From NCBI GenBank assembly GCA_029932585.1, contig JAOZPU010000001.1, positions 630-64,629 of the forward strand: a stretch of DNA of 64,000 bases, in the 5' to 3' direction. This document shows positions 24,450-46,681 of this stretch, piece by piece; the stretch's first letter is position 1, and each line of letters opens with the position of its first letter. A model generated the notes under the pieces. The model was given only the letters and a program-made list of their open reading frames with translations. It did not search any database and was not told where the DNA came from. The translations under genes and the position numbers were made by a program. The DNA is from Spirochaetia bacterium. Its GTDB lineage: Bacteria > Spirochaetota > Spirochaetia > B11-G9.

Positions 24450-24487
24450 TTAAATACTTTAAAAAACTTCATCATCGGAGTAGTAAT

Positions 24488-26029
24488 TTGAGATACTCGC
24501 TAATTGTATTGTCACTTTTTATTGTATTTACATCCTGTAATAAGATTGAACAAACGGAAACTATTAATCCACAGGAAATAATCCCTGTATACAAGGGGAA
24601 TAACAGTTCAAATGATAAAGAATTATTAAATATAACAATAGATAAAGAGACAAAAGTTTCAAAGGTAACTTTAGATCCTGATGATTTCCTTATTGATTTA
24701 ATTGATACAAATCTTGATCTGGATAGTAATGATGAACAAATACTCATTGTAAAAAATAATATAAGTAATAATTCTCATGTAAGAGTTCTTGTTGCAGATT
24801 TTGATAACATTATAAACTCTTATTTTGTTTCCTGGGAAGGAATAACAGGTTCTGATAACATAAGATCACTTTCTGTTTCTCTAAAGGATATTACAGGAGA
24901 TCATAATCTTGAAATTGTATGTACCGGAACTGATCTTGATGGGAAAGAGACAATAAATATTTTTCGTCGAACTCCTTCACAGGATAGAATAGTTATTCAC
25001 TTTTCTGAAATTCTGAATTTGAGTGTCGATGGTAATATTGAAATAAAAGAGGAACAAAGGTCCCAGGCATATCAAACAGGAATTAGTAATGGTATAAGTT
25101 TTCCCATTACTGTCACTACTACAGATAAAACTTCTGAAAATATACTAGATATGATTAGAGAGACCTATTTTTGGAGAAATCAGGAAGATATATATAAATT
25201 AATTAGCGTAGATAAAATACCTGGAGATGATATTGAAAATAGTAAATTACGTGATCTCTATCGAGGCGATCGTAATTATTTTAAATCTTTCCTTAATGGA
25301 CCATGGATGTTGTCAAATTCAGAAAATAATTTATCTTATAATAATCCTATAGTATATTTTGATCCTGACAACAACCAGATTGTCTTTTCCAATCACGATT
25401 TTCAAGAAATATATTTGTGGGAAACTTCAAGTAAAACATTATCGAATACACTTCAAATAACATGTGAAAATGACCTTGTCCCATTTTTAGATGTTTCTTT
25501 ATCTGTTCGTATTCTTGATATTAATACCATAGGGTTAAAATTCAGGGATAATAGTATTCGTAATTCTAAATCTTCGGAAAATCAAATATGGACTGGAAAT
25601 TATTTCAAACTCAATACTGAAGTTCAAAAAGATTTAATTGGAGAATATAGATCAATTTCAAATAATTCAGATATTCCAGTTCTTTCCGGCTATTACAGGA
25701 GTGATACAGGAGATGAATTTTCTTTCAATTCGCCTAAATTTTCTTTAAAATCCGGAGATCAAACATATAATGGAGGCTTTTATCTATTTAACAATGGTTT
25801 AAAAATAGCTGAATTTAAGATGCTGGATGAAAACAATCTTGTTAAAGATATATTAACTTATAAATATGATTACTTTGAAGAAAAAAATGATACAGAAATA
25901 ATAAGAACTATTATTTTAATTCCTGGGGAACTAACCATAAAGGGCTTTATTCCATCAGGAGAGCAATTCATCAGATATATTCAAATAGAACAAATTGAAA
26001 GAAAAGAATCAGAAGAGCCGCTTTCCTAA
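24488..26029 (+). CDS. Hypothetical lipoprotein (513 aa).
   Basis: TTG start with GGAG at -8. The signal peptide carries the lipobox FTSC. No recognisable domains. Confidence 0.55.
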   Translation: MRYSLIVLSLFIVFTSCNKIEQTETINPQEIIPVYKGNNSSNDKELLNITIDKETKVSKVTLDPDDFLIDLIDTNLDLDSNDEQILIVKNNISNNSHVRVLVADFDNIINSYFVSWEGITGSDNIRSLSVSLKDITGDHNLEIVCTGTDLDGKETINIFRRTPSQDRIVIHFSEILNLSVDGNIEIKEEQRSQAYQTGISNGISFPITVTTTDKTSENILDMIRETYFWRNQEDIYKLISVDKIPGDDIENSKLRDLYRGDRNYFKSFLNGPWMLSNSENNLSYNNPIVYFDPDNNQIVFSNHDFQEIYLWETSSKTLSNTLQITCENDLVPFLDVSLSVRILDINTIGLKFRDNSIRNSKSSENQIWTGNYFKLNTEVQKDLIGEYRSISNNSDIPVLSGYYRSDTGDEFSFNSPKFSLKSGDQTYNGGFYLFNNGLKIAEFKMLDENNLVKDILTYKYDYFEEKNDTEIIRTIILIPGELTIKGFIPSGEQFIRYIQIEQIERKESEEPLS

Positions 26030-31716: not shown

Positions 31717-32319
31717 TTGAATAAAAAATATTTCTTTATTATTTTATTGATATTACTTGTTTCCTTAGCTTCTTTTGCACAGGAAACTGAGGAAAACTTC
31801 CTTGAACCTTACAGTAGAGGAAGTCAGACATTTTCTATCAATTTGGGTCTATTAGTTCCTCTTTTTATTATCTTCCCTAATCAGGATACTGTTTTTGTAT
31901 CTTTCCAGAACCAATTATCCTTAGGAGGTACGGGATCTCTTGAATGGGCTACTTACCTTGATAACAGATGGTCTATTGGAGTTGGTCTTGCAGGTACTTT
32001 TGCTGGAACACCCCAGGAAAATACTCATTCGCTTATTCCTATTACCGCAAACTTAACTTACAATTTTCTTTTTAACTCATTTGAGGTACCACTTATAATG
32101 GGTGCAGGTTTTGCTGTAAATCAGGTTGATACTCAGGTTTATTTCGGACTGATTGCAAAAATAGGTGCTGGTTTTTTCTGGAATATGAATGCAGAATGGG
32201 CTTTTGGACTTAGAACACAATACTGGCTTGTACCGGAAATCTATTTTGGAGAGCAGGCTGATAAAACTGCCTATGGTAATTTTTTAGACATAGGGCTTTC
32301 TGCAAAATTTCACTTTTAA
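31717..32319 (+). CDS. Putative small outer-membrane beta-barrel protein.
   Basis: 200 aa. TTG start with GAGGT at -6. It has a signal peptide, alternating hydrophobic/aromatic strand pattern and a C-terminal ...KFHF ending in Phe (OMP signature). Confidence 0.5.
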   Translation: MNKKYFFIILLILLVSLASFAQETEENFLEPYSRGSQTFSINLGLLVPLFIIFPNQDTVFVSFQNQLSLGGTGSLEWATYLDNRWSIGVGLAGTFAGTPQENTHSLIPITANLTYNFLFNSFEVPLIMGAGFAVNQVDTQVYFGLIAKIGAGFFWNMNAEWAFGLRTQYWLVPEIYFGEQADKTAYGNFLDIGLSAKFHF

Positions 32320-32330
32320 CAGGATAAATT

Positions 32331-33338
32331 ATGAAAAAATACATTATATTAATGCTAGTTGCTATAACACTAATTTTGGGATCCTGTAATTCGGATGGAA
32401 ATGGAATTTTCTTTCAGATAAGCCAGGAAGTAAAACAAATAACATCGGAAATATCTGAACTTCCTGTTCATCAGGTTGTAGAAGTTGATTCCACTGTATA
32501 TGCCCGGACAGGAAGTAAAGTATGGGTTAAGAGTGCTTCTAAATGGACTGATGTTAGTAAAGGTAATCATATTTATAATATTGTTGAATATAATAGTTCT
32601 TTGTATGGAAATATTAATAATGATGATGTCAATCTTAATGGTGGAAAGATAATGTCATATGATGGTTCTAGTTGGTCATTAGTTACAGATTATGCTACAG
32701 ATATTACTTTATTTGAAGCTGATGATAATTATATTTTGCTTGAAGGAACAACTGATATTCTATCTTCTACAAGTGATCTTTCTAGTTTTGTCTCCAGTAC
32801 GTTAAGTGGAATGAATATTCTTGATGGTGCATATAATGGAACAATAGGTATTCTTATTTCAAAAAATAAAATTTATGAAAGTGCTTTTGGTGTCGCAATG
32901 ACAGAGCAAACACTTATTGGGGATGCAACAGGAGAGCTTAGAGGTATTACTATAGATACAACAAATAATTTCTTTTATATAATTAACAGTTCTGGAGATC
33001 TCTATAAATCTGATGTGAATGGACAAAATTGGGTATCAGTAAATAGTATTTCTGAACATATATCATATAATGGAGCACTTGGAAATGATATAATTGATCT
33101 AACAGAATATTTAATAATTGGAACAGATAATGGTTACTATGAAATGGAGATAGGAACTACAACAATTTCAAAACCCTCAGCAACAACCAGTGTTCTGGAC
33201 TTTGATACTTCATATCCGGAACTGGCAACAGAGCTTGTCTTCGAAGTGTATCCTTCATCTACAGCCAATGAATTTTACCTTGCAACAAGTAAAGGGTTAT
33301 GGAAAAGAAATACTGACGGTACATTTACAAAGCAATAA
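32331..33338 (+). CDS. Hypothetical lipoprotein (335 aa).
   Basis: Lipobox LGSC. It lies 11 nt downstream of the OMP gene and is rich in Ser, Thr, Asn and Gly. Confidence 0.55.
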   Translation: MKKYIILMLVAITLILGSCNSDGNGIFFQISQEVKQITSEISELPVHQVVEVDSTVYARTGSKVWVKSASKWTDVSKGNHIYNIVEYNSSLYGNINNDDVNLNGGKIMSYDGSSWSLVTDYATDITLFEADDNYILLEGTTDILSSTSDLSSFVSSTLSGMNILDGAYNGTIGILISKNKIYESAFGVAMTEQTLIGDATGELRGITIDTTNNFFYIINSSGDLYKSDVNGQNWVSVNSISEHISYNGALGNDIIDLTEYLIIGTDNGYYEMEIGTTTISKPSATTSVLDFDTSYPELATELVFEVYPSSTANEFYLATSKGLWKRNTDGTFTKQ

Positions 33339-33402: not shown

Positions 33403-36400
33403 TTACTTGGAATAATTCCCATCCGGAATATCAAGAAACCCTCTAAAATTATTAAGTTCCCATGTTGTTTTAACAAATGCCCCATTATGGTTAAGAACAG
33501 ACTTCCAACCCATAATATTATTGCCATTTATCGTTACACTATCCTTACCACCATTAATAGTAATTGCAGCCTGATCTGTAGAAGATATCCAACTTAAGTT
33601 TTTAGATGTTATACTATTTTCAGTAAACTCTATGTTTAAAGGATTAGCAAAGTTGAAAGCTGTAAAAACAGTAGTACCACCTTCTAAATCAATTTTATTG
33701 TTTGAAAATATTGAAACACTCGTATTTAAATCAACTCCTCTAACAATATCACTGGATTTAATTGATATATCATTTTTATACAGATTAATTATAGTGTTAC
33801 TTCCTTTTGTAAAATATGAGAATTCATTTGTTTTATCTAAAACAACAGAAGAATTTAGTAATTCCATACTAGAATTATCTGCAAGAATAAACGATATTCC
33901 TGAATCACCCATTAAATATATTTTTAAACTGTCAAGATAAACAATTGAATCTTTAATATCAAAACAAGATAATATTCTGCTGGAACTAACAGAATTTATA
34001 TTGGATTTTTCCATATTTAATTTACTATTAGTAAGTAAAAAGATATTTGTATTTATTGTACCTAATCCTGTATCCATATTTGTATTAATAATTGAAATAT
34101 CACTGTTATTCGAATTAAAAATCTCAATTTTTTGAGCAATTGAAGGAATAATATAAGAATCTTCTATAATTAATTTAGTTTTGTCTAAAGAAAAAATATT
34201 TAAAGATTTTGAAAGCCCATTCCCTGTTATTGTAGTACCTAATAAATTTATAGTACTATTCTTAGAATCAAATAGTTTTCCATTATCAATTGATCCAAAT
34301 ACTAATTTACTATCATTCAAAGTTAGATCTGAATTAATTACTTTGACAAATTCGGAAGCTTTAATATTTTCCTGAAGAAGATCCATATTATTTAACTGAA
34401 CCTGACCTCCATTCATATAAATAATTGGTGCATCAAGACTTAAATTTGAAAGTGAAATTTTGCTTAAATTTACATTTCCAGATTTTACTTCAATTAAAGG
34501 TTTATTTGCCGGAAATCTTTTTGATACTGCAATAGCGGTCTCTCCCCTTCCCTGATTCCAATTATTTAATGTAAATCCACCTGCTAATGTTATATCATCC
34601 TTTATAATTATTGAATTATCAATTAAAAATTCACCCTCAGTTAAATAAATAATTCTGCGTTTTGTTAAATCAGAATATTCCAGTGCTCTTTTTATTGTTT
34701 TGAAAGGTTTTAATCTGGATCCGCTATTACTATCATGTCCTTGAACTGAAACATAAATATTTGCTTTGTCAATAATAAACTTTACCTGATTAACAGAACT
34801 TCTATTGCCAGCAGAGTCTTCCGAGTACATATCAATTTTTAAAGTTTCAAACATTCCTTCTTCAGTACTAATTTTTACATCTTCAGAGTATTTTTTAAAG
34901 TTTTGAGAATAAGAACCATCTATATCAGAACTAATTTTGTAGTAAACAGAATCTTCACATTTAAAATTCACCAGCATATTCTTTTGATAATAACCATTAT
35001 TCTCAACCCCGAGTACTATGGGTATAACCGGATTAGTTTTATCTATGGTAAATTTATAATTTGTATCATTTTTTTCCAGTTCAGAAACATCTTCATTAAA
35101 TTCCTTAACATTTAAAGAAACTTGCAATGTTTCACCTTTTGCAGAATCAAAAACAATTGGATCTGATAATTCAGGAGAAAAAACAGTTACATTTTTGGGT
35201 TCATTGTTATCGATTGCAACTTCATAACGTACAGTACGGGATTGATTAACTTTCCAGACTACTCTTCCATTATTATATATTTTATTGTTGGATATACCTG
35301 TTATAATATTACCTGAGGAGGTCATTCTATTAAGTCGTGTAACTGCAACAGAGCTTTTATTACCCAGTGTATCTATTGAATAATAAAATAGATCTAAATT
35401 ATCATTATTCCTTAGATCTATATCCACAGGAGACAAATATTCATTAAAATCACCATCCCCCTGTTTTAAAAATATTTTCCTTCCAGTTATAGTGGGAAAT
35501 GAAATAGTACTTAAAGTGGAATTTATTTTTCCGACTTCTATTACAGGAACCTGATTTGATATTTTATCGAAAACAACTTTATGTAAACAGGAATTGATTG
35601 ATAAATTACCTGCTTTATCAATAGTTCTGGCACTAATATACACAGCTTTACTATTTCCAGCCTTCAATTCAATAGGAAAATTATATACAGAAGAATTTTT
35701 ATTTGGAATGTTCGGGTATGTGCCATCATTTGAAATCTCATAAACAATATCATCCATGTCATCTGCTAATAATCGTATAAAAATATTATTATCAGTAGAA
35801 TATTCTTCTTTAATAATTGGAGATTCAGGATATTTTTTATCTATTGTAAAACTAATTAAATTTCTGCTAATACTTGTATTCCCAGCCGGATCAATTGAAA
35901 TGGCTGCAAGCTGATAACTCTTTTCTGTATTTTCAGATTGTATCAAAGTATAATTTGAACTAAGTAAGATACCATTCATTTTAAAATTTTCGATATTTAA
36001 ATCTTTTTCTGTTATTTGTTCTTTAAGTAAGATCCAGGTAGTTTCATCATTTTCATTCACACTTATAATTACATCATCATTATATATTTGTCCATCAACG
36101 ATTGATGAGATTACAGGTGCCCGTGGAGCTATACGATCAATTTGAAAATTTATTTGTACAGGATCAGTTCTTATTCCATTTTCTTTATAAGCAGCTATCA
36201 TTTTTACAGAATAGAAACGCGATTCGTTAACCGGACAATCAAAATAAATAAAATCATTAACAATATTCTCATTACTCAGTATTGGATCTGAAGGAGGTGT
36301 TGTTCCTGTACTTATTGTATAGTAAACTTTAATGTCATCTGAATAATGGAACCTCATACTTCTAGGCTGATTGTAAATTCCTTTATTCTCAATTCCACTA

Positions 36401-38298
36401 TATTCAGGAAATATAGGAACTCTATTATCTATTTGTATATCATTAAATATTTCATTTTTACTTTTATTTCCCACAGCATCCTGACTGTAGCTTATAATTG
36501 AATAATTATTTAAACCCGAACTATCAATATCTATTGTAAATGGCTTTTCATAAAGTTGAAAATCATCATTATTTCCTTTACCATCACTTACCAGTTTATA
36601 ATATAAAGTATCTGTTCCTCTAATAACTATTTCTCCATTTATATAACTTATTTCAGGACTATCCGGAGGAATTGTATCAGATTTTAACAAATCAATTAAA
36701 ACTGACTCAGAAATATTTCCAGCACGATCTATTAGTGCAATATTGATAATTGCATTTTGATCCATACCGTGAGGAATATTTAAAGTCATATTAGCTTTAC
36801 CAGTAAAAGATTCAGAATTGGGAGAGGGAGGAAGAGATCCATCATAAGTAATATTATATATTATTCGATTTTCTAAAACATTATCTATTCTAAACAGAGT
36901 TTGTCTCAAGCCTTCAGAGAGTTTTGTTACAATAGGTTTTTCCGGTTTTTTAATATCAAATGTAATTAGTTTTGATGTTACAAGACTAGTTGATTTATCA
37001 TTAAAATAGGAAATTGCTTTTATAATCATTGATCCGGAAGAAAGACCATTTGGCAGATCCATTTTAAATGGTTTATTATAATAATTTGAATATCGATCTG
37101 GTGTTGAGCCATCAATTGTATAATATATTTCTGATCCAGGAGCACTAAGTAATCTTACTTCTGTGGTAGTTACCAGGGGAGATTCAGAGCCTATTGAGAT
37201 AATTGGAGAAGCTGGTATTTTTTTATCCAAAACATACACATAGCGATATTCGCCTGATTCTGAATTATCGGAAACTCTGATTATTCTATATTTAACAACT
37301 CCTGGTACGGGCATTACACTTAAATAGTCAGGAAGAAAAGGATCTAAATTACTAACTTCAACATCATCTATATTATAATGTAGTTCCTTTGAATTAAATT
37401 TAAGATTTAATTCTTCTGAATAAACACCGCTATCATTATTGATTACTATATTTTTATTATCAATTATAGAAAAATCAATTTCTTTTCTAAGAATTTCTTT
37501 AGATTCAAAAGGAAGTGCTGCAATTTTTAATGTAAAATCACCTATAGATTTTAATAGAACAGGATCAATATATGACGTTCCTCTAATTGCAGGATCTGTA
37601 TTATTTAAAGTATATCTTATCCACTTATATCCAGTTGTATCCATATATAATAACTGACTATTTAAAAACTTACCTGCTACCGGACTTATAAGATCTATTG
37701 TCTGTAAGCTTTTTTGTAAAGGGAGAATAGTGAATCTATTAATAACAACACTACTCTTATTCCCTGCGGAATCTTCTGAATAGCTTTTAATAAAATCTGT
37801 ATTTAAACCTTTTTCTTGTGTAATTAAAATTTGTTCACCATTCCACAACCTGTATTCGGATTTGTTTTGAGATTGAATTGTATAATAAATTGAATCATTA
37901 CTATCTTTAAATTTAAAACTTAGTTCACTACTATATATTCCATCATTTATAGTGAGCTTAGGCTCCAGAGGAATATTTTTATCAACTATATAATTGTATG
38001 TAATTGTCTCAAGTATCTCAGATTCGTCTATGGCCATGACTACAAGAGTAAATTTTCTTGATTCACCAGACATAGCTGTAAGACTTAATGGGTATAAAAA
38101 TTTTACTGGTGTTTTATCAAGGCTTTCTTCAAAATAATAGAAAATATCTGATTCAAGAGAATTATTAAAGGAAACTTCTACATTGTTATTATAAATTCCA
38201 GATTCTAATGATGGAATAATAATACCGCTTAAACTAAATATGTTAAAAAGTGAAAAGTTACTTATTATAAACAGTATTATCAGAAACTTGTATTTCAT
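33403..38298 (-). CDS. Giant exported surface protein with about 13 degenerate chitobiase/hexosaminidase-C-like (CHB_HEX_C) repeat modules and a C-terminal right-handed parallel beta-helix domain.
   Basis: 1631 aa with a signal peptide. There are recurring modules of about 90-100 aa with the signature [IVL]YY[TK]I..G..P.....Y..PF.I, for example IYYTIDGSTPDRYSNYYNKPFKM, LYYKLVSDGKGNNDDFQLYEKPFTI, VYYTISTGTTPPSDP and VYYKISSDIDGSYSQNFKKY. The C-terminal ~500 aa begin with ...VQGHDSNSGSRLKPFKTIKRALEYS, typical of pectate-lyase-fold proteins. Confidence 0.75.
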   Translation of the reverse strand: MKYKFLIILFIISNFSLFNIFSLSGIIIPSLESGIYNNNVEVSFNNSLESDIFYYFEESLDKTPVKFLYPLSLTAMSGESRKFTLVVMAIDESEILETITYNYIVDKNIPLEPKLTINDGIYSSELSFKFKDSNDSIYYTIQSQNKSEYRLWNGEQILITQEKGLNTDFIKSYSEDSAGNKSSVVINRFTILPLQKSLQTIDLISPVAGKFLNSQLLYMDTTGYKWIRYTLNNTDPAIRGTSYIDPVLLKSIGDFTLKIAALPFESKEILRKEIDFSIIDNKNIVINNDSGVYSEELNLKFNSKELHYNIDDVEVSNLDPFLPDYLSVMPVPGVVKYRIIRVSDNSESGEYRYVYVLDKKIPASPIISIGSESPLVTTTEVRLLSAPGSEIYYTIDGSTPDRYSNYYNKPFKMDLPNGLSSGSMIIKAISYFNDKSTSLVTSKLITFDIKKPEKPIVTKLSEGLRQTLFRIDNVLENRIIYNITYDGSLPPSPNSESFTGKANMTLNIPHGMDQNAIINIALIDRAGNISESVLIDLLKSDTIPPDSPEISYINGEIVIRGTDTLYYKLVSDGKGNNDDFQLYEKPFTIDIDSSGLNNYSIISYSQDAVGNKSKNEIFNDIQIDNRVPIFPEYSGIENKGIYNQPRSMRFHYSDDIKVYYTISTGTTPPSDPILSNENIVNDFIYFDCPVNESRFYSVKMIAAYKENGIRTDPVQINFQIDRIAPRAPVISSIVDGQIYNDDVIISVNENDETTWILLKEQITEKDLNIENFKMNGILLSSNYTLIQSENTEKSYQLAAISIDPAGNTSISRNLISFTIDKKYPESPIIKEEYSTDNNIFIRLLADDMDDIVYEISNDGTYPNIPNKNSSVYNFPIELKAGNSKAVYISARTIDKAGNLSINSCLHKVVFDKISNQVPVIEVGKINSTLSTISFPTITGRKIFLKQGDGDFNEYLSPVDIDLRNNDNLDLFYYSIDTLGNKSSVAVTRLNRMTSSGNIITGISNNKIYNNGRVVWKVNQSRTVRYEVAIDNNEPKNVTVFSPELSDPIVFDSAKGETLQVSLNVKEFNEDVSELEKNDTNYKFTIDKTNPVIPIVLGVENNGYYQKNMLVNFKCEDSVYYKISSDIDGSYSQNFKKYSEDVKISTEEGMFETLKIDMYSEDSAGNRSSVNQVKFIIDKANIYVSVQGHDSNSGSRLKPFKTIKRALEYSDLTKRRIIYLTEGEFLIDNSIIIKDDITLAGGFTLNNWNQGRGETAIAVSKRFPANKPLIEVKSGNVNLSKISLSNLSLDAPIIYMNGGQVQLNNMDLLQENIKASEFVKVINSDLTLNDSKLVFGSIDNGKLFDSKNSTINLLGTTITGNGLSKSLNIFSLDKTKLIIEDSYIIPSIAQKIEIFNSNNSDISIINTNMDTGLGTINTNIFLLTNSKLNMEKSNINSVSSSRILSCFDIKDSIVYLDSLKIYLMGDSGISFILADNSSMELLNSSVVLDKTNEFSYFTKGSNTIINLYKNDISIKSSDIVRGVDLNTSVSIFSNNKIDLEGGTTVFTAFNFANPLNIEFTENSITSKNLSWISSTDQAAITINGGKDSVTINGNNIMGWKSVLNHNGAFVKTTWELNNFRGFLDIPDGNYSK

Positions 38299-38903
38299 AA
38301 CATCTGTTTTTTTATGATATCAACTAATTCCGGGCTATCTTTGTAATATTCTTTTAATTCATTTTCAGTAAGTCCCACAAGTTCATGGCTCATATAATGT
38401 ATCCATACATCATCTTCCGGTTTTTCAATAATATGAGTCCTGCATGAATAATCAGGAACCAGAGGTAATTTGTCTTTTTTATATTTTATATCTTTAAAAT
38501 CATGAACTGCAATTTTTAAATCATGTCTTGGGATACCATGGTTTATTATTACTTCTCCTAAATGATTTATTGTTCTTCCTGAATCATAAATATCATCAAC
38601 TAACAGAACCTTGTCTCCGTTTCTAAGATATTCAGGATTATAAGTCCATCCATCTATCATTACTGCAGATTGTTCTTTAATATTTGTATATGATCTTGCT
38701 ACAACAGCTGCATAAAAAACAGGACGATCATTACCCTTAACTATTTTAAAATATTCACTAAATACATTTCCAAGATATGCTCCTCCCCGTAACAAAACAT
38801 AGATTACATCAGGAACAAACCCATCTGTATGTATTTGGTTTGCTAATTTAAGAGCATTATTTCTAACATTATTGTAAGTAATAAAATCTTTTTTCATCAT
38901 CAT
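38295..38903 (-). CDS. Small type-I phosphoribosyltransferase-domain protein.
   Basis: 202 aa with the PRPP-binding motif VLLVDDIYDSGRT. Its stop overlaps the start of the giant surface-protein gene by 4 nt (ATGA). Confidence 0.65.
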   Translation of the reverse strand: MMMKKDFITYNNVRNNALKLANQIHTDGFVPDVIYVLLRGGAYLGNVFSEYFKIVKGNDRPVFYAAVVARSYTNIKEQSAVMIDGWTYNPEYLRNGDKVLLVDDIYDSGRTINHLGEVIINHGIPRHDLKIAVHDFKDIKYKKDKLPLVPDYSCRTHIIEKPEDDVWIHYMSHELVGLTENELKEYYKDSPELVDIIKKQML

Positions 38904-38953
38904 CCTTTCCTTTATAATATTATCGGTTTAATAAAATCGATAACTCCACTCTT

Positions 38954-39730
38954 TTAATCTAAAGTTGTCAGTATTTCTGTATGATCTTCAAAAACCGCAA
39001 CAGTATGCTCCCAATGTGCAGATAATTTTTTATCCATTGTTAAAACAGTCCATTCATCATCAAGAACCCTTACATCATCTACACCTAAGTTTATCATGGG
39101 TTCAATTGCTAAAACCATCCCTTTTTTTATTCTAGGATTAGCACCTGAACTAACATAGTTCGGGACCTGAGGTGATTCATGAGGACTAAAGCCTACTCCA
39201 TGACCGCAAAAATCTCTTACAACACCATAATTATATTTTTTAGCATGGTTGTATACAGCTCTTGAAATATCATGAATACGATTACCTTTAGTTGCCTGTT
39301 CAATTCCTAAATAAAGAGACTCTTTTGTAACTCTTATTAAATCTTCTGCTTCTTTAGTAATTTTACCAACAGGGAGAGTAACAGCTGCATCACTGAAAAA
39401 ACCTTTATAGTTAATACCAAGGTCGAGACTAATAATATCACCCTCTTTAAGTTTCCTTTTTGAAGGAATGCCATGAATAACAACTTCATTTAATGAAGTG
39501 CATAAAGTTGCAGGATAATCCATGTATCCTAAAAAAGCAGGGATACCACCTCTTTTCTTTATGTAATTACGAGCAAATTTATCTAATTCAAATGTTGTAA
39601 TTCCTACATCAATTAGTTTTGAAAGTTCAATATGTGTTTCTGCAAGAAATTTACATGATTCTCTAATTCCATCAATTTCATTTACAGATTTTAATTTTAT
39701 CATAAGGGCTCCAAATATTTTAGTTATCAA
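38954..39730 (-). CDS. map: Methionine aminopeptidase type I.
   Basis: 258 aa with the pita-bread-fold metal ligands (D..D...H...E...E pattern) and FCGHGVG. Confidence 0.9.
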   Translation of the reverse strand: MITKIFGALMIKLKSVNEIDGIRESCKFLAETHIELSKLIDVGITTFELDKFARNYIKKRGGIPAFLGYMDYPATLCTSLNEVVIHGIPSKRKLKEGDIISLDLGINYKGFFSDAAVTLPVGKITKEAEDLIRVTKESLYLGIEQATKGNRIHDISRAVYNHAKKYNYGVVRDFCGHGVGFSPHESPQVPNYVSSGANPRIKKGMVLAIEPMINLGVDDVRVLDDEWTVLTMDKKLSAHWEHTVAVFEDHTEILTTLD

Positions 39731-39742
39731 AATAAATTATCA

Positions 39743-41332
39743 CTAATTTCTACTTGATTCAAGTTTTTTTAACAAAAGATTAGCTTTTAGATTGTGAGGG
39801 TCCATATCTAAAGCAATATTTATCTCTCTATAAGCAGAATTATAGTTTTTCATATTATACATTAACTCTGCTAAAGTTGTTCGTATTATTGATTTTGTTT
39901 CAAGATACATGGTATTATCTAACAAATTTTCTGCATTTTGATAATATTGAATAGCATTCTGGTACTGGTTAGTATATTCAAACAAAACACCCATATTATA
40001 CAGATATTCCCATTTACCTTCTAATACATATGCAGATTGGAGTAAATCTATAGATTTATTATAGTCTTCCTGACTGCAAGCAACTATGGCTTTAAAAAAC
40101 AAGACCCAACTATAATTATTTTTCTCTATTTGAAGGAAATTATCTAAATTATTAAATTTACCATTTTCAAACATCTTCCATGACAGATATTTGGCTGCAT
40201 TCATATCTTCCGGATTTAAATTTACAAAATTTCTTACATTATTAATAAAATTTTCAGGATTTTCTGTTCCTTTTAACTCTTTAAGAATAATTTCAATTTC
40301 TTTATCATTAGTATTATTTAATAAATAATTCTCTAATAAAGAAATTGAACTCTCCACTCTATTGTTTTCTTCAAGGTATTTTGCAATAATAAATAATAAG
40401 TTTTTGTCATTCTTAAATAATGTAATACTTGAATTTATTACGGAAATTACATCCGGAACATCAATATAATAACTTAAAAGTATTAAATTTATATATGGAT
40501 TAACAGAGTAATTTGGATAAAGATTTAAAAATTGTAAATTTAATTCCAAAGCATGTCTATAGAGATTTTGTTTTAAACTTGTATCAATTCGAAAAAGATT
40601 TAATTCTTCTATTGAAAAATTAAAATCATATTTTAACAACAATTTATCAACTTCTTTATATTTGCTATTATAGTATTTTGTAAATAGTAATAATCTTTTA
40701 AAATCAGTATTACTGTTATTAAGTGAACTCAAAATATAATCTGCTTTTTCATAATCACCTTGTTCTAAATAAATTAAACCAGCATCGATTAGAAAATATT
40801 CATTTAATGTAATTTCAAACAGTTTCTCAAATAATGTTGTACTTTTTTCTTTTAAAACTTTATAAAAAATATTATCATCAGAAATAATGATATCTGAACC
40901 AATAGCTGCCTGTAATTGGAAATTATCAGATATAATATTATTTTTATCTTTCAAAAGAATATTATTTGCTTTTTCAGGATTATTTGATAATAGTAAAGAT
41001 TGAATATAAATTGCAAATATTTGCTCATCTTTTGAATATTTCAAATAAGCTTTTTCTGATAAACTAGATAAATAATTCCAATTTCCAGTACTATATATTC
41101 TTTTTAACAAACGTTTATAATCACTGGAACTATTTACAAGATCTTCACCAGATACTAAGAAGTCTACTATTTCTAATGATGAATATTTATTCCAATTAGA
41201 ATCGATATTTTCAACAAACAGATCAAAATTTTTATCTTTAATTTCTTTAGATTTCAAAACTAAAATAGAAAAAAATAATAGTACTATAATTGCAGTTACA
41301 GATATTATAACTATTTTAGTTTTAAGGTTCAT
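39743..41332 (-). CDS. TPR-repeat protein with an N-terminal TM anchor.
   Basis: 529 aa with an N-terminal hydrophobic helix and multiple TPR-like Y/N-rich repeats. Confidence 0.55.
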   Translation of the reverse strand: MNLKTKIVIISVTAIIVLLFFSILVLKSKEIKDKNFDLFVENIDSNWNKYSSLEIVDFLVSGEDLVNSSSDYKRLLKRIYSTGNWNYLSSLSEKAYLKYSKDEQIFAIYIQSLLLSNNPEKANNILLKDKNNIISDNFQLQAAIGSDIIISDDNIFYKVLKEKSTTLFEKLFEITLNEYFLIDAGLIYLEQGDYEKADYILSSLNNSNTDFKRLLLFTKYYNSKYKEVDKLLLKYDFNFSIEELNLFRIDTSLKQNLYRHALELNLQFLNLYPNYSVNPYINLILLSYYIDVPDVISVINSSITLFKNDKNLLFIIAKYLEENNRVESSISLLENYLLNNTNDKEIEIILKELKGTENPENFINNVRNFVNLNPEDMNAAKYLSWKMFENGKFNNLDNFLQIEKNNYSWVLFFKAIVACSQEDYNKSIDLLQSAYVLEGKWEYLYNMGVLFEYTNQYQNAIQYYQNAENLLDNTMYLETKSIIRTTLAELMYNMKNYNSAYREINIALDMDPHNLKANLLLKKLESSRN

Positions 41333-41748
41333 ACCTCTTTTGATTTTTTGATTCCATCTAATATACCATTGATAAAACGATAGGCCTCATCACTTCCGTA
41401 ATCTTTTGCAATATCAATTGCTTCGTTTATTGTTACTGTTGATGGTATCTCTTTTTGATAAAGAAGTGAGTAAACACTTAATCTTAAAATAGCTAATTCA
41501 ACTTTAACAATTCTATCAAAATCCCAATTTTTAAGTTGTTTTTTTATGGAGCTATCAATATTTTGTAAATTTTCTATCGTTCCTACTACTAATAATTTTG
41601 CAAAATTAATTGTTTCATTATCAAAATTTTCGAGTTTTGTCTCATCCATCCAATTAAACTTAATTAATTCTTCAGTACTGTTATTATTAAAATCTTTACT
41701 AAACAACGTCTGGAATGCCAGAATACGCCCTTTCCTTCTTGAACTCAT
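41329..41748 (-). CDS. nusB: Transcription antitermination factor NusB.
   Basis: 139 aa with the typical NusB N-terminus (RRKGR.LAFQ.LF) and ...RFINGILD. It overlaps the downstream TPR gene by 4 nt. Confidence 0.8.
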   Translation of the reverse strand: MSSRRKGRILAFQTLFSKDFNNNSTEELIKFNWMDETKLENFDNETINFAKLLVVGTIENLQNIDSSIKKQLKNWDFDRIVKVELAILRLSVYSLLYQKEIPSTVTINEAIDIAKDYGSDEAYRFINGILDGIKKSKEV

Positions 41749-41758
41749 ATTATTCCTG

Positions 41759-42799
41759 TTAAAAATATATTATTTCTGCTTGTTCCCTTAAATCAGAATT
41801 TATTTCCTGTAATGCAAGTGATAAGACTTTTTGCTGATTTTCCTGAAGTATTCCATCTTTTATATAATCTTTTACTAACAAAGGATTATCCGGAGTTATC
41901 TGATCATCAAGAGTTAGAAGTTTAGGCTCTATTTTTTCGGTAATTTTTACAACATGATATCCTGAATTTGATTCCAAAACTTCAGATATAGCATTTAAAT
42001 CTAATTTAAATAACTTATTAAAAAAATCGTCACCAAGTTGTAGTTTTAGATTTCTATTATCTCTGCCAATATATCCGATATCTCCTCCTCTATACTTAAT
42101 ACTTTCTTCTTCAGAATAGGTTAGGACTGCATCATCAAAACTAATAGATCCGTTTTTTAATTCTAAATAAGCTTTTTCCAATTTTTTCTTTGCAAGATCA
42201 CTTTCTTCAACATTCTTGTTTAACACAGGAATAAAGATCATACTAACACGAACATATTCAGGATTAAAAAAATATTGCAGATTCTCATTATATTTATTTT
42301 CTATTTCATTTTTTCCAGGAACTTTAATGTTTTCAAATAAAGATTTCTTGTTTTGAGTAATATAGGTTTGTTGAAGCAGCTGCTCTTTAATTCCAGATAA
42401 ATACAACTCCCAGGTAGAAGCTGTTTGTCTAATTATCAATTGTTTAAATTGTTCATCTGAAATTTTTTGACCTAATTGTCCTTCGGCACTTTTCTTTTGA
42501 GCCTGAATTACTCTATTTATATCAATATCTGAGATACTTAATCCTGATTTTTCAGCAGCTTGCGCAATTAGTATAGAAGATATAATAGATTCTAACATAT
42601 CCGTTCTGGAAATATTTTGGATTGGCATACCACTATTAAGTAATTGCTTGTTATACTGTTCAATTTTTTGATCTATGTCAAAGGATGATACAAGTTCAGG
42701 TCTAATAAGATTTACGGAAGCTAAAGGCTTACTTAATATATCTGCATATACAACTGTACTGATTAATAGAGATAACAATAACATTATTATTTTTTTCAT
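41759..42799 (-). CDS. SurA-like periplasmic chaperone / PpiC-type peptidyl-prolyl isomerase.
   Basis: 346 aa with a signal peptide and a SurA-N-like region. The C-terminal parvulin domain reads GGDIGYIGRDN...SGYHVVKI. Confidence 0.7.
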   Translation of the reverse strand: MKKIIMLLLSLLISTVVYADILSKPLASVNLIRPELVSSFDIDQKIEQYNKQLLNSGMPIQNISRTDMLESIISSILIAQAAEKSGLSISDIDINRVIQAQKKSAEGQLGQKISDEQFKQLIIRQTASTWELYLSGIKEQLLQQTYITQNKKSLFENIKVPGKNEIENKYNENLQYFFNPEYVRVSMIFIPVLNKNVEESDLAKKKLEKAYLELKNGSISFDDAVLTYSEEESIKYRGGDIGYIGRDNRNLKLQLGDDFFNKLFKLDLNAISEVLESNSGYHVVKITEKIEPKLLTLDDQITPDNPLLVKDYIKDGILQENQQKVLSLALQEINSDLREQAEIIYF

Positions 42800-42825
42800 A
42801 TAATACTCCAGAGATACCTAATAAA

Positions 42826-43239
42826 TCAGGATATATGCAATCGTTTACCAATACTAACCGCTTCATCCCTATTTGAAATAATATCAGATTTTTTTAAATA
42901 AAGACCCTCGTGTTCCATAGAATACATAAGTTTACTCAAGTTTTTTTGTGGTCTTAAAGTAGTTTTTGAAGTAAACGCATACGAACGTTTACCTTTTAAC
43001 AAGCCCGAATTACTAAGAAAAACTGAAGTTTTGGAAGGAATTGTACCCCCCAAAAAATTTATTCCATCCACACCTACAACAATATAATTATATACTGTTA
43101 ACTTCGAGTTTTGATCCAGGTTGCCATTTATAATGTCAACCTGGTGTCCCTGCATTTGGATTCCCTCAGATAGTGATTTAGAAATATTTTCAAGTTTATT
43201 ATTTTTTTTACCCGAAAAGAAAACTATTCCTACTCTCAT
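42826..43239 (-). CDS. Hypothetical protein (137 aa), possibly with a flavodoxin-like fold.
   Basis: It starts MRVGIVFFSGKKN, like alpha/beta folds. No firm motif. Confidence 0.4.
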   Translation of the reverse strand: MRVGIVFFSGKKNNKLENISKSLSEGIQMQGHQVDIINGNLDQNSKLTVYNYIVVGVDGINFLGGTIPSKTSVFLSNSGLLKGKRSYAFTSKTTLRPQKNLSKLMYSMEHEGLYLKKSDIISNRDEAVSIGKRLHIS

Positions 43240-43255
43240 AAAAACCTCTGGTGGA

Positions 43256-43594
43256 TTATTGTGCTGAGCTGGATTCTTCAGAACTAACCGTAGAATTCCA
43301 CCATTCAGAAGTATTATCTACAACTTCTTCCCGGGCTACTCCCAAAACATCACCTGATGTTATGGTTCTATTAACCCAGGCATTCCCTAAAGAACTTAAA
43401 ATGAATATTGCTCCAATAATTGATGTAGCTTTTGTTAAAATATTACCAGATCTTGAACCAAAAGCAGCACCACTGCCCCCTCCGAAGATTCCACCCAGTC
43501 CATCACCCTGATCATCCTGCATCATAACAATTATGATAAGCAAAATTGCACTGATAACGAATATTACTAAAAGTAATGTTCCTAAAATTGCCAT
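43256..43594 (-). CDS. secG: Preprotein translocase subunit SecG, with a C-terminal extension.
   Basis: Two TM helices flank the conserved Gly-rich loop (GGIFGGGSGAAFGSRSGN). 112 aa, with a tail of about 35 aa that is not typical for SecG. Confidence 0.8.
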   Translation of the reverse strand: MAILGTLLLVIFVISAILLIIIVMMQDDQGDGLGGIFGGGSGAAFGSRSGNILTKATSIIGAIFILSSLGNAWVNRTITSGDVLGVAREEVVDNTSEWWNSTVSSEESSSAQ

Positions 43595-43617
43595 TAATTT
43601 TTCTCCACTGACTATAT

Positions 43618-44367
43618 CTATTTATTATATTCCATTATTGGAATAAAAGTTTCTGCTTTAAGTGCAGCTCCACCAACTAATGCTCCATCAATATTAGCTT
43701 TACCCATTAATTCTTTTACATTTGAAGGCTTAACAGAACCTCCATATTGAATAATTAATTGATCAGCTGTCTCTTTACTATATAATTCTTCGATTTCTTT
43801 TCTTATTACACTATGTATATCATCTGCATCTTCAGGACTAGCTGTTTTACCTGTGCCAATAGCCCAAACAGGTTCATATGCTATAGTTATTGATTCCATT
43901 TGTTTTTCGGATATATCTTTTAATCCTTTTAAAACCTGGTCTCTAACAATTTTTTCAGCAGCACCAGCTTCTCTCTCTTCTAAAGTTTCTCCAACACAAA
44001 AAATAACTTCCAGACTATGCTTTAAAGCTAAATGTATTTTTGTATTAACTATTTCGTTAGTTTCACCATAGATTGATCGCCTTTCTGAATGTCCTAATAT
44101 AACAGCCTGGACGCCCAAATCTTTTAGCATAAGTGGAGATATTTCTCCAGTATGAGCTCCAGACTCTGCAGTTGACATATTCTGAGCACCTAAAATAAGC
44201 TCAGTCCCTTTAACTGCATTTGAAACAGTTTCTAACAAAGTAAAAGGAGGTGCTACAAGTACTTTATTTTTAAAACTACCATTTTCCAAAAGTTCTTTGA
44301 CAAGTGAAAGAGCTTCAGATCTTGTATAATTCATTTTCCAGTTTCCGGCCATATATGATCTACGCAT
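43618..44367 (-). CDS. tpiA: Triosephosphate isomerase.
   Basis: 249 aa with the catalytic motifs (AYEPVWAIGTG, GGS.K). Confidence 0.95.
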   Translation of the reverse strand: MRRSYMAGNWKMNYTRSEALSLVKELLENGSFKNKVLVAPPFTLLETVSNAVKGTELILGAQNMSTAESGAHTGEISPLMLKDLGVQAVILGHSERRSIYGETNEIVNTKIHLALKHSLEVIFCVGETLEEREAGAAEKIVRDQVLKGLKDISEKQMESITIAYEPVWAIGTGKTASPEDADDIHSVIRKEIEELYSKETADQLIIQYGGSVKPSNVKELMGKANIDGALVGGAALKAETFIPIMEYNK

Positions 44368-44420
44368 TTAATTCTCCTTTGATTGAAAAAACAAGCAACA
44401 ACAAAGTTACTAACTATATA

Positions 44421-45599
44421 CTATTTTAAAGCAGCTATACCAGGTAGAATTTTACCTTCCAGATATTCAAGTGAGGCTCCACCACCTGTAGAAACATGAT
44501 CAATTCTATCAGCAAAACCAAACTTATTGACTGCAGCAACAGAATCGCCTCCACCTACAACAGTTGTACCTTTACAGGCAGCAACTAATTCAGCTACTTC
44601 TAAAGTCCCCTTTGCAAAATTGGGGAACTCAAATACACCCAGAGGACCATTCCAAACAAGTGATTTAGCACTTGTGATTACTTTTGTATAAGATTTTAAA
44701 GTATTAACACCAACATCCATACCAATCAAACCTTCTGGTATATTCTCATTATCAACAACAATAGCTTCTGCATTCTCAGAAAATTCCAATGCTGCTAAGT
44801 GATCAACAGGTAAAAGTAAGTTTACACCTTTTTCTTCTGCACTTTTCATTAAACTTTTTGCTGTATCAATGAAATCTTCTTCAATTAAAGAATTTCCAAT
44901 ATTAAAACCTTTAGCTTTTAAAAATGTATACGCCATTCCACCACCAATTATTAAAGTGGTGCAATTTTTCAATAATGATTCAAGAACACTAATTTTTGAA
45001 GAAACTTTCGCACCACCTATAATAGCAACAAAGGGTTTTTCTGGATTTGTTACAAGAGGTTCAAAAAAGTTTACTTCTTTCTCTATAAGAAACCCACCTG
45101 CAGATGGTAGAAAATGAGAAACACCTTCTGTTGACGCATGCGCCCTATGTGCAGTACCAAAAGCATCATTTATATATATATCACCATTTAAAGACAATTT
45201 TTTGGCAAAGTCAGTATCATTTGCTGTTTCTTCTTTATGAAATCTTAAATTTTCTAAAAGAAGAACTTCACCGGCTTTAAGTGATTTAATTTGAGAATCA
45301 ACACCTGGGCCAATGCAATCATCTGCCATTATAACATCTCGTTTAAGAAGTTCTGACAATCTGTCTTTAACATGAGTAAGGGAATATTCTTTATCCACCT
45401 TACCCTTAGGTCTCCCAAGATGGCTCATCACAACAAGTGATGCACCATCCTGTTCAAGTATATAATTTAAAGTTTTCAACGCTGCTTTTATACGTGTATC
45501 ATCTGTTATAACCCCATCTTTAAGGGGAACGTTAAAATCTACACGAACAAGAGATCTTTTATTTTTCAGATCAAGATCTTTGACAGTTCTAATTTTCAT
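44421..45599 (-). CDS. pgk: Phosphoglycerate kinase.
   Basis: 392 aa with the N-terminal RVDFNVP motif and hinge and C-terminal motifs. Confidence 0.95.
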
Positions 45600-45609
45600 A
45601 GTTAAATAC

Positions 45610-46614
45610 CTATTTTGAAATTTTAACTGCTAAATCCACAACTCTATTGGAATATCCCCATTCATTATCATACCATGATAAAACTTTAAAGAAACCTTTT
45701 CCTATTTTCATTGTAGATAATGAATCAAAAATTGATGAATGAGGATTTTGTACTATATCAATAGACACAATTGGATCCTCTGTATATTCCAAATAGCCCT
45801 TCATAGGTCCGTCAGCTGCTGCTTTTACTGCCGCATTGAGTTCTTCTACGCTTGGATCTTTTTCAAGTCTTACTGTAAGGTCAACTAATGAACCAGTAGG
45901 AGTAGGTACTCTCAAAGCCATTCCATTCAGTTTACCATTAAGTTCAGGTATAACAAGACCAACTGCTGCTGCTGCACCTGTTGTTGTTGGTATAATAGAA
46001 ACTGCACCAGCACGAGCTCTACGAAGATCGCTATGTGGTGAATCATGCAAACTTTGGTCACTTGTATAAGCATGTACAGTAGTCATAAGTCCTTCTACAA
46101 TTCCAAAGTTATCCTGAAGTACCTTTGCAATAGGAGCAAGACAATTTGTAGTACATGAAGCATTGGATACTGCTACATCAGCTGCATTATAAGAATCATC
46201 ATTAACACCAAGAACAATAGTTCTATCTACCTGGTCTTTTGCAGGAACTGATAAAATTACTTTTTTTGCACCTGCAGTAATATGATCTTTATATCCACCC
46301 TTAGGGCCGGTTGCAGTTCTGAAAATACCAGTAGATTCAACAGCTACATCAACTCCAAGTTCTTTCCATGGTAATTTTTTTGGATCTCGTTCTGCAAAAA
46401 CCTTGATTTCCTTTCCACCAACTATGATAGAGTTCTCTCGTACTTCTACAGTATGTTTTAGAACTCCATAATTTGAATCATATTTTAAAAGGTGTGCCAG
46501 AGTCTTTGGATCTGTAATGTCATTTATTGCAACAATATCTATACCATCTCTTTCGAAAGCCACCTTAAAAACACTTCTACCAATTCTGCCAAAACCATTA
46601 ATCGCTATTTTCAT
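45610..46614 (-). CDS. gap: Glyceraldehyde-3-phosphate dehydrogenase.
   Basis: The ORF extends to 46629, but the likely start is [13 protein letters not shown]. It has the catalytic SCTTNCL motif. Confidence 0.95.
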
Positions 46615-46681
46615 ATTTCCTCCATGCACTATTAAACATTTAAATGTAATATATGCTGAAATTCAGCTAAATGTCAACAAA

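Follow-up and report, generated by a model that had tools for sequence, protein, structure and literature searches.

The window analyzed here, a stretch of 64,000 nucleotides from a Spirochaetia bacterium, contains a gene for a type I phosphoribosyltransferase (PRTase) whose stop codon overlaps the start codon of a much larger gene, with a long string of co-directional genes lying upstream of the pair (Table 1). An initial annotation of this DNA had described both the large reading frame and the overlap; the frame is real, being present in the open reading frame list and in the translation, and the ATGA can be read directly from the sequence. The predicted product of the large gene consists of a signal peptide, a stalk of Ig-like modules, and a C-terminal β-helix.

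Table 1. Features of the PRTase and large-protein locus, in coordinates of the window
Feature	Position	Strand	Basis
Gene for stalk-and-β-helix protein, 1631 aa (stop codon 33403..33405)	33403..38298	minus	ORF list and translation
Right-handed parallel β-helix domain, aa 1177-1631, ~13 coils	33406..34770	minus	
β-helix N-terminal cap with DUF1565 signature	34558..34770	minus	≥80% conservation, 64 family members
Stalk, 13 tandem Ig-like modules	34771..38220	minus	linker motifs, module alignment, HMMs
Module 3, aa 195-278, divergent Ig-like	37465..37716	minus	highest conservation within the stalk
Sec-type signal peptide, aa 1 to ~24	38227..38298	minus	read from translation
ATGA overlap, PRTase stop/large-gene start	38295..38298	minus	read from sequence
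Type I PRTase gene, 202-aa ORF from first ATG	38295..38903	minus	PF00156
PRPP-binding loop VLLVDDIYDSGRT of PRTase	38571..38609	minus	read from sequence
Co-directional string: gap, pgk, tpi, secG, 137-aa ORF, SurA/PpiC-like gene, nusB, TPR protein, map	38954..46629	minus	Pfam annotation, synteny
Best sigma-70-like promoter match (11/12 positions), just upstream of gap	46648..46677	minus	promoter scan

The large protein begins with the features of a Sec-exported protein: a positively charged n-region (MKYK), a hydrophobic h-region (FLIILFIISNFSLFNIF), and small residues at −3 and −1 (SLS, with predicted cleavage before the G that follows), and nearly all homologues have similar N-termini. There is no cysteine within residues 1 to 45, and the signal is therefore not of the lipoprotein type. 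In a diderm spirochaete, a signal peptide of this kind predicts passage across the inner membrane only. The initial annotation had called the product a surface protein, which goes further than the Sec-type signal warrants, as we found no lipobox cysteine, β-barrel translocator, Autotransporter Pfam match, TPS domain, sorting signal, or other recognized anchor in the protein; nor is it organized as a type V autotransporter, since it ends in the β-helix and a short C-terminal tail. As neither an anchor nor a secretion route was recognized, its location and its orientation as a head on a stalk are conjectural.

The stalk modules were delimited by linker-based segmentation together with leave-one-out HMMs, which replace the regular expression of the initial annotation. 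They start at residues 27, 106, 195, 279, 358, 448, 541, 624, 721, 820, 909, 994, and 1086, and the last ends at residue 1176. The proposal of about 13 CHB_HEX_C-like repeats holds, in that there are 13 Ig-like modules and three related models all score above their cutoffs: Fn3_assoc (PF13287; 61.4 bits, cutoff 23), CHB_HEX_C_1 (PF13290, the scan suggested at the time; 47.5 bits, cutoff 22), and an OmpL47-type domain (NCBIfam NF047446; 50.5 bits, cutoff 40, with its best stretch at residues 1117 to 1176). Only three stretches are detected directly by each Pfam model, the other modules being assigned by alignment between modules; most of the aligned modules are backed by the leave-one-out HMM test, which is significant for 11 of the 13, whereas structure prediction is the basis for modules 3 and 4. 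The repeat signature originally given has no matches when applied literally, but its core, when loosened, has nine, and the copy at residue 391 (IYYTIDGSTPDRYSNYYNKPFKM) is close. Residues S205, P206, G209, N213, Q215, W226, Y229, P236, G240, Y243, and P246 of module 3 are invariant. Pairwise identity between modules averages just 19%, and at the DNA level the large gene has no tandem repeat as long as a module, from which we conclude that the module duplications are old, as had been proposed; a recent repeat expansion was rejected for the same reasons. Linker residues are invariant in 25 homologues with 24 to 60% identity, and thus the number of modules is fixed, with long-class members of the family ranging from 1588 to 1794 residues.

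The C-terminal domain is a right-handed parallel β-helix of the pectate-lyase-like superfamily, as shown by structural similarity of its AlphaFold2 model (pLDDT, 91.8) to solved members. When residues 1172 to 1631 are scanned alone, they match DUF1565 (PF07602) with 25.1 bits (cutoff 20.3) over profile positions 1 to 223 of 257, as do 12 of 17 homologues; a full-length Pfam scan of the large protein returns no DUF1565 or β-helix match. The β-helix of the initial annotation is thereby confirmed, although of the two HMMs put forward for checking it only DUF1565 gives support: Beta_helix (PF13229) has no match to the large protein at E ≤ 1 and matches two of the 17 homologues. Conservation across the family is confined to the N-terminal cap, whose signature (D1177, Y1182, G1187-x-D-x-N-x-G1193, P1198-F-K-T-I, A1205, G1222, GG1240-1241, and W1247) is invariant in closer sets of homologues.

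Is the β-helix an enzyme? In known lyase, hydrolase, and epimerase β-helices, the catalytic residues are conserved among members of one family. In the large protein, a search for carbohydrate-active catalytic residues found none conserved in the helix body: whether 25 close family members or a wider set of 64 are compared, no position holds a conserved D, E, K, R, or H. The domain differs from the DUF1565/pectate-lyase-like superfamily (GH110, PL6, AlgG/AlgE, and phage tailspike depolymerases) in lacking conserved catalytic acid/base and Ca-binding residues. Structurally, it is closest to a passenger domain that is not an enzyme, and sequence identity to all enzyme matches is 6 to 16%. It is therefore rather improbable that the large protein is a secreted polysaccharide lyase, glycoside hydrolase, or epimerase with a catalytic helix and with Ig-like modules as spacers or carbohydrate-binding units, even though eight of 17 members have weak Pfam matches to Pect-lyase_RHGA_epim, and a GH114-like segment in one homologue (P0023) hints at a polysaccharide context. 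The suggestion of a glycan-degrading role accordingly finds no support, and the β-helix is probably non-enzymatic; we note that a lineage-specific enzyme activity may be compatible with the lack of family-wide catalytic residues.

Comparison with characterized proteins places the large protein among known kinds without matching any one of them closely. The β-helix is only 10 to 12% identical to the Bordetella passengers Vag8 and pertactin (PDB 7akv_G and 2iou_H), and unlike these, the large protein has no C-terminal barrel translocator, carries its helix C-terminally behind 13 Ig-like modules, and has a DUF1565-type cap at the N-terminal end of the helix. With CHB_HEX_C_1/Fn3_assoc/OmpL47-type proteins it shares the stalk modules, which score above all three cutoffs, but it lacks a GH20 or other catalytic domain, and it has a fixed number of positionally orthologous modules. 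Among fibrillar adhesins, Streptococcus pneumoniae PfbA is LPXTG-anchored in a monoderm, whereas the large protein has no recognizable anchor and a diderm host. The large protein does nonetheless combine a stalk with a candidate head, and in this it resembles Vag8, pertactin, PfbA, Hap, and EtpA, raising the question as to whether the large protein is a surface-exposed fibrillar adhesin, or a host- or particle-binding protein on the outer membrane, with the β-helix as its adhesive tip. Its rapid sequence evolution is consistent with this, as exposed proteins typically evolve rapidly, and the stalk includes the OmpL47-type domain, named for a surface-exposed Leptospira protein. However, the protein has none of the outer-membrane anchors, translocation domains, or sorting signals noted above; its module number is constant across the family, whereas in adhesins it is often variable; and the gene lies within an operon of housekeeping and envelope-biogenesis genes in free-living sediment lineages. 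We regard the adhesin, which is in line with the surface-protein reading of the initial annotation, as a minority reading, unlikely but the strongest of the alternatives. It overlaps with the explanation that we favor, from which it differs mainly in location.

That explanation, which we hold to be probable, is that the large protein is an exported, non-catalytic envelope protein encoded by the last gene of an ancient operon, and that its pairing with the PRTase reflects inherited architecture and co-expression. The organism is an uncultured spirochaete of marine type, in which a cleavable Sec signal would carry the protein across the inner membrane, and the 13 positionally fixed modules would form a long stalk of fixed length bearing a smooth β-helix of about 13 coils at its C-terminal end. 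Like the passenger of an adhesin, the helix would most likely be a head that binds or has a structural function; we do not propose a lyase or hydrolase role.

The PRTase itself matches PF00156 with 40.9 bits (cutoff 26.3) and has the PRPP loop of a type I enzyme, with D101, D102, D105, G107, and T109 invariant in the family alignment, so the description of a PRTase-domain gene stands; its length probably does not. The more than 3000 homologues are about 200 residues long and start with MKK or MxK, and the true start is therefore probably the third ATG, at position 38897, giving a likely product of 200 rather than 202 residues. The PRPP loop aligns with its counterpart in Sulfolobus GpT-2 and human-type HGPRT, and the type I fold is shared with 6-oxopurine PRTases (Sulfolobus GpT-2, 4z1o; HGPRT, TIGR01203; Gpt, PRK09177). 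The profile match to these enzymes spans the N-terminal 110 to 120 residues; in contrast, the last 60 residues (WIHYMSHELVGLT...YY) are conserved and specific to spirochaetes, and the protein scores far below the hypoxanthine(-guanine) PRTase equivalog cutoffs (TIGR01203, 29.6 versus 150 bits; NF006605, 26.2 versus 181 bits), with a best PDB match of E = 7e-5. The sequence suggests a cytoplasmic type I enzyme, probably of the purine type.

The tight junction between the two genes is a general feature of the locus. Of the 69 spirochaete genomes that could be evaluated, 57 have a β-helix gene no more than 100 nt downstream of the PRTase gene, the usual spacing being −4 to +7 nt, and in four further genomes this gene is split or farther away (61 of 69 in total), while the other eight keep the PRTase without a β-helix gene at the locus; these frequencies are biased towards relatives, because the 80 species-level loci sampled are the best PRTase matches of 589. 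One of the eight (L052) has htrA and the PRTase gene followed 38 nt later by a convergent gene. The adjacency asked about in the initial annotation is thus conserved and, as both domain types also have HMM support, neither of the outcomes that it named as refuting applies; the same-strand arrangement, with an overlap or a gap of a few nucleotides across divergent genomes, is that of a translationally coupled pair. There is no Shine-Dalgarno-like sequence upstream of the start of the large gene, and 23 of 36 PRTase-large gene junctions likewise lack such a motif. Ribosomes terminating on the PRTase gene would then probably start the large gene by termination-reinitiation at the ATGA. We note that the tight overlap is preserved over deep divergence, which counts against the explanation that we favor.

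The large gene would be the last member of a co-directional string in which housekeeping genes stand beside genes for envelope biogenesis. The order gap-pgk-tpi-secG-surA-nusB-TPR-map-(htrA)-PRTase, a string of at least ten genes with the large gene at its end, is conserved across spirochaete genomes, including loci in which the large protein is only 24 to 29% identical and most of the 80 species-level loci; htrA is absent from the 64-kb window. The PRTase gene is as tightly linked upstream to map or htrA, with a 4-nt overlap at one junction (L084) and 5 nt at another (L083). The promoter match just upstream of gap may possibly mark the start of a long transcript; the scan reported 95 promoter-like sites versus 95.5 expected from shuffled sequence and is uninformative in AT-rich DNA, as is the terminator scan, which found no terminator-like site between map, the PRTase gene, and the large gene.

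The pairing of a PRTase with a large exported protein had been described as unusual, and the conserved junction raises the question of whether the two form a functional pair, with the PRTase supplying a phosphoribosyl envelope precursor, or with translation of the envelope protein gated by PRPP or purines. Several observations are in keeping with this. First, the adjacency is found in most evaluable genomes, mostly with the two genes overlapping or at most 7 nt apart and in many cases with no Shine-Dalgarno-like motif. Second, the junction is retained at three loci (L024, L032, and L080) despite broken upstream synteny, which exceeds what simple inertia would require. Third, the PRTase is unusually conserved and is the equivalog of no named PRTase. 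Nonetheless, the PRTase persists intact without the β-helix gene at the locus in eight genomes, is joined just as closely to its upstream neighbors, and is cytoplasmic whereas the large protein is exported, and no gene for a glycosyltransferase or carrier lipid lies with the pair. The two also evolve at very different rates: median identities to distant genomes are 67% for the PRTase (a value biased towards relatives by the choice of loci as best PRTase matches), 68% for GAPDH, 26% for the stalk, and 23% for the β-helix, such that the large protein is among the fastest-evolving products of the string and the PRTase is about as slow as GAPDH. A functional pair is thus very improbable; conserved co-expression of the two genes is supported, and a functional partnership is not. 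On the explanation that we favor, the PRTase would be a separate enzyme with its own strongly constrained function, sharing no biochemical pathway with the large protein; mean column identity in the PRTase family alignment is 76%. We give equally little credence to the more elaborate idea that the stop-start coupling is functional phylum-wide, with the 13 modules forming a periplasmic or outer-sheath spacer of fixed length that is metered by PRPP or purine status, or with the PRTase having a second envelope role. In a milder version, the fixed-length stalk may act as a molecular ruler for envelope spacing.

Full-length homologues of the large protein (about 26) are found in Spirochaetales metagenome-assembled genomes (MAGs), and a profile search yields 145 family representatives at E < 1e-30. 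The sampled genomes are mostly MAGs labeled Spirochaetales, Treponematales, Rectinemataceae, Sediminispirochaeta, and Marispirochaeta, and the gene pair is carried by those of the last two genera (L040, L053, and L063). Word-indexed homologue searches and a cluster look-up returned no named or characterized family member and no record from a cultured organism, and we found nothing relevant in the literature on the domain combination, PF13290, Treponema hpt, or the candidate Treponema pallidum locus tags TP0839 and TP0840. Homologues are publicly annotated as 'chitobiase/beta-hexosaminidase C-terminal domain-containing protein', an automatic name that implies an enzyme and that the conservation pattern does not support. 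Our reading is that the large protein belongs to a known kind but is itself uncharacterized, and that its gene has been passed down within a translationally coupled operon. If correct, it represents an envelope protein family of fixed architecture that closes a conserved gene string in most sampled genomes, a candidate structural or binding component for spirochaete cell-envelope biology, and, from the gene arrangement, a clear case in which translational coupling of unrelated proteins is deeply conserved; the practical consequence is modest, and known principles are unchanged. The window contains no second copy of the large gene, and horizontal acquisition was rejected, as its GC content (0.28 to 0.29) is like that of neighboring genes and synteny at the locus extends across the phylum. 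The family falls into two size classes in the sampled genomes, of about 1000 and about 1600 to 1800 residues, and an N-terminal cysteine does occur in some homologues of the short class.

The PRTase gene and the large gene downstream of it are joined, as the initial annotation had read, by an ATGA overlap in which ...ATG TTA TGA ends the first gene and ATG AAA TAC begins the second. The regional GC content (0.28 to 0.31) is the same as that of the adjoining DNA. A 202-aa PRTase ORF is present as described, but its product is probably shorter, because the homologues are all ~200 aa and begin at the equivalent of its third methionine; this places the probable true start at 38897, which is preceded by the Shine-Dalgarno-like AGGAAAGG. 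To ask how widely the adjacency is conserved, a PRTase profile was scanned against one genome per species, giving 589 confirmed loci; the 80 best were retrieved, and 69 of them, with 2.5 kb or more of sequence past the PRTase gene, could be evaluated. A beta-helix gene lies within 100 nt downstream of the PRTase in 57 of the 69 genomes, is split or farther away in 4, and is missing in 8. The adjacency is therefore conserved, contrary to the refuting outcome initially named. The junctions are mostly at -4, -1, or +1 to +7 nt, and because 23 of the 36 inspected, including that in the window, have no SD-like motif, they would fit with termination-reinitiation. From map through the PRTase gene to the large gene, no terminator-like site was found. 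Just upstream of gap is the best promoter-like site of the region (11/12 positions), although this is weak evidence, as such matches occur at chance level in this AT-rich DNA.

Features of the large gene, the PRTase gene, and their surroundings
Feature	Position	Strand	Basis or remark
VWA-domain ORF, DHH/DHHA1 ORF, and pallilysin beta-barrel-domain ORF, mutually adjoining	22367..26029	+	
Two ORFs (200 aa and 335 aa), convergent with the large gene on its downstream side	31717..33338	+	
Large gene, 1631 aa	33403..38298	-	ORF call and translation
Module 3 of the stalk (aa 195-278)	37465..37716	-	Most conserved part of the stalk; 11 invariant residues
ATGA overlap, PRTase stop and large-gene start	38295..38298	-	Sequence
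PRTase gene, 202-aa ORF	38295..38903	-	ORF call and translation
PRTase from its probable start	38298..38897	-	
map	38954..39730		

The adjacency is ancient and translationally tight; its best explanation is operon structure, inherited at the tail of a string of housekeeping and envelope genes. The order PRTase to beta-helix gene is kept after loss of upstream synteny in a few loci (L024, L032, and L080), and for this reason we retain a small probability that the PRTase and the large protein are functional partners. However, in the loci that hold the pair, the entire upstream string common to them, gap-pgk-tpi-secG-(137-aa ORF)-surA-like-nusB-TPR-map-(htrA)-PRTase, is conserved too, and the PRTase gene is as close to the upstream htrA as to the large gene (5 nt in locus L083, and a 4-nt overlap in L084). 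The 8 genomes without a beta-helix gene at the locus nonetheless hold an intact PRTase; in one of them (L052), a convergent downstream gene is 38 nt past it. In comparisons with distant genomes, the PRTase has a median identity of 67% (somewhat inflated, as loci were picked by PRTase similarity), GAPDH 68%, PGK 64%, and Map 58%, against 26% and 23%, respectively, for the stalk and helix of the large protein. Moreover, the PRTase is cytoplasmic whereas the large protein is exported, and there are no glycan-synthesis genes beside the pair. These observations favor inherited operon structure over a functional partnership. We note that in most related genomes htrA (trypsin-PDZ) is between map and the PRTase gene; it is absent from this position (gap 38904..38953) in the window and its closest relatives (L003-L009 and L082), and from the 64-kb window as a whole. 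One of these relatives, L008 (JANTGS010000189.1), a 3-kb contig with a Flavobacteriaceae MAG label, carries a TPR-map-PRTase string of spirochaete type, in which the PRTase shares 73% identity with that of the window, and the label is probably a binning error.

The PRTase matches PF00156 above cut-off and has an intact PRPP loop (VLLVDDIYDSGRT); it is a type I enzyme, probably purine-type. It is conserved like GAPDH across spirochaetes, yet scores far below the cut-offs of the HGPRT, XPRT, and APRT equivalog models and fits no named equivalog, with the nearest solved structure being Sulfolobus GpT-2 (E 7e-5). The family has >3000 members of ~200 aa, with a mean column identity of 76% and a C-terminal segment (WIHYMSHELVGLT...YY) that is conserved and specific to spirochaetes.

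The large protein is an uncharacterised exported protein of a known type, with an Ig-like stalk and a beta-helix head. Its translated N-terminus (MKYK-FLIILFIISNFSLFNIF-SLS/G) is a cysteine-free Sec-type signal peptide, with equivalents in nearly all homologues; this indicates export, and the surface location previously proposed is not established. Neither the window protein nor the long class of homologues has a lipobox-type cysteine in its signal peptide. In the short class, the signal peptides of L028, L033, L037, L039, and L060 end in cysteine (e.g., AVVLC, AAALC, TAFC, and LAPC), and these few members may be lipoproteins.

Residues 27-1176 form 13 modules of 79-99 aa separated by D-x(1-4)-P-x(2-3)-P linkers and sharing, in order, G-x-Y, IYY-x-I, Y-x-x-P, S-x-D-x-AGN-x-S, and F-x-ID. 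This agrees with the ~13 CHB_HEX_C-like repeats initially noted, even though the literal repeat expression offered for them has no matches, and only the copy at aa 391 comes close. In leave-one-out HMM tests, 11 of 13 modules score above all 500 shuffles, and the protein exceeds the cut-offs for Pfam Fn3_assoc (61.4 bits), CHB_HEX_C_1 (PF13290; 47.5 bits), and the NCBIfam OmpL47-type domain (50.5 bits). Pairwise module identity is 7-46% (mean, 19%) and at the DNA level the large gene lacks tandem repeats the size of a module, so the duplications are old rather than recent, as had been surmised. Because the linker residues are invariant in 25 homologues that are just 24-60% identical overall, the modules are positionally orthologous and fixed in number. 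Module 3, which the HMM does not recognise as a repeat, has the invariant pattern SP..G..xN.Q ... W.RY ... P...G..Y..P and occupies the third position in all long-class proteins matched; this constancy, together with its invariant residues, suggests a specialised site, perhaps for anchoring or interaction.

The C-terminal parallel beta-helix is borne out by an AlphaFold2 model of aa 1172-1631 (17-sequence alignment; pLDDT, 91.8; pTM, 0.90), a regular helix of ~13 coils with three strands per coil. DUF1565, missed in the full-length Pfam scan, passes the gathering cut-off when the C-terminal 460 aa are scanned alone (25.1 bits; cut-off, 20.3), as in 12 of 17 homologues, and domain-by-domain scanning is advisable for repeat-rich, compositionally biased proteins. 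Beta_helix (PF13229), also anticipated, is unmatched even in the domain-only scan. Among 64 family members, the only helix-domain residues at least 80% conserved (D1177, Y1182, G1187, G1193, P1198, A1205, G1222, G1240, G1241, and W1247) are all in the N-terminal cap, and in a closer set the helix body adds only G, S, T, F, Y, N, W, and L as invariant or near-invariant residues. Foldseek against PDB gave weak matches only. The family alignments have no conserved acidic/basic cluster as in beta-helix lyases, hydrolases, and epimerases, and the best match is Vag8-type, which favors a putative non-catalytic binding or structural head over the glycan-degrading role suggested earlier. The sole hint of a carbohydrate-active module is in the 1682-aa homologue P0023, where a C-terminal GH114-like segment (PF03537; ...LAYMNIGAVENWRYYW...) comes after, or takes the place of, the distal part of the beta-helix region, so that a polysaccharide context is possible.

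A word-indexed search gave ~26 full-length relatives, all from Spirochaetales-type MAGs; where a name is given, it is 'chitobiase/beta-hexosaminidase C-terminal domain-containing' or 'FN3 associated'. Homologue searches and cluster look-up gave no characterised member and none from a named culture, and literature searches on the family found nothing. A C-terminal-domain profile matches 145 representatives at E<1e-30, mostly of 1600-1800 aa with the domain C-terminal, and beyond these, thousands of generic beta-helix proteins. The short class (~990-1045 aa) has the same helix with fewer stalk modules, and its hosts include MAGs labelled Treponematales, Treponemataceae, and Rectinemataceae. The convergent 200-aa and 335-aa ORFs are unmatched in a Pfam scan, but precomputed matches assign homologues of the former to PF27340 (TP_0126 family), and in the long-class clade the two are conserved together on the downstream side of the large gene. 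The VWA/pallilysin neighbourhood is reminiscent of the Treponema pallidum TP0750/TP0751 pair and supports a spirochaete origin of the window.
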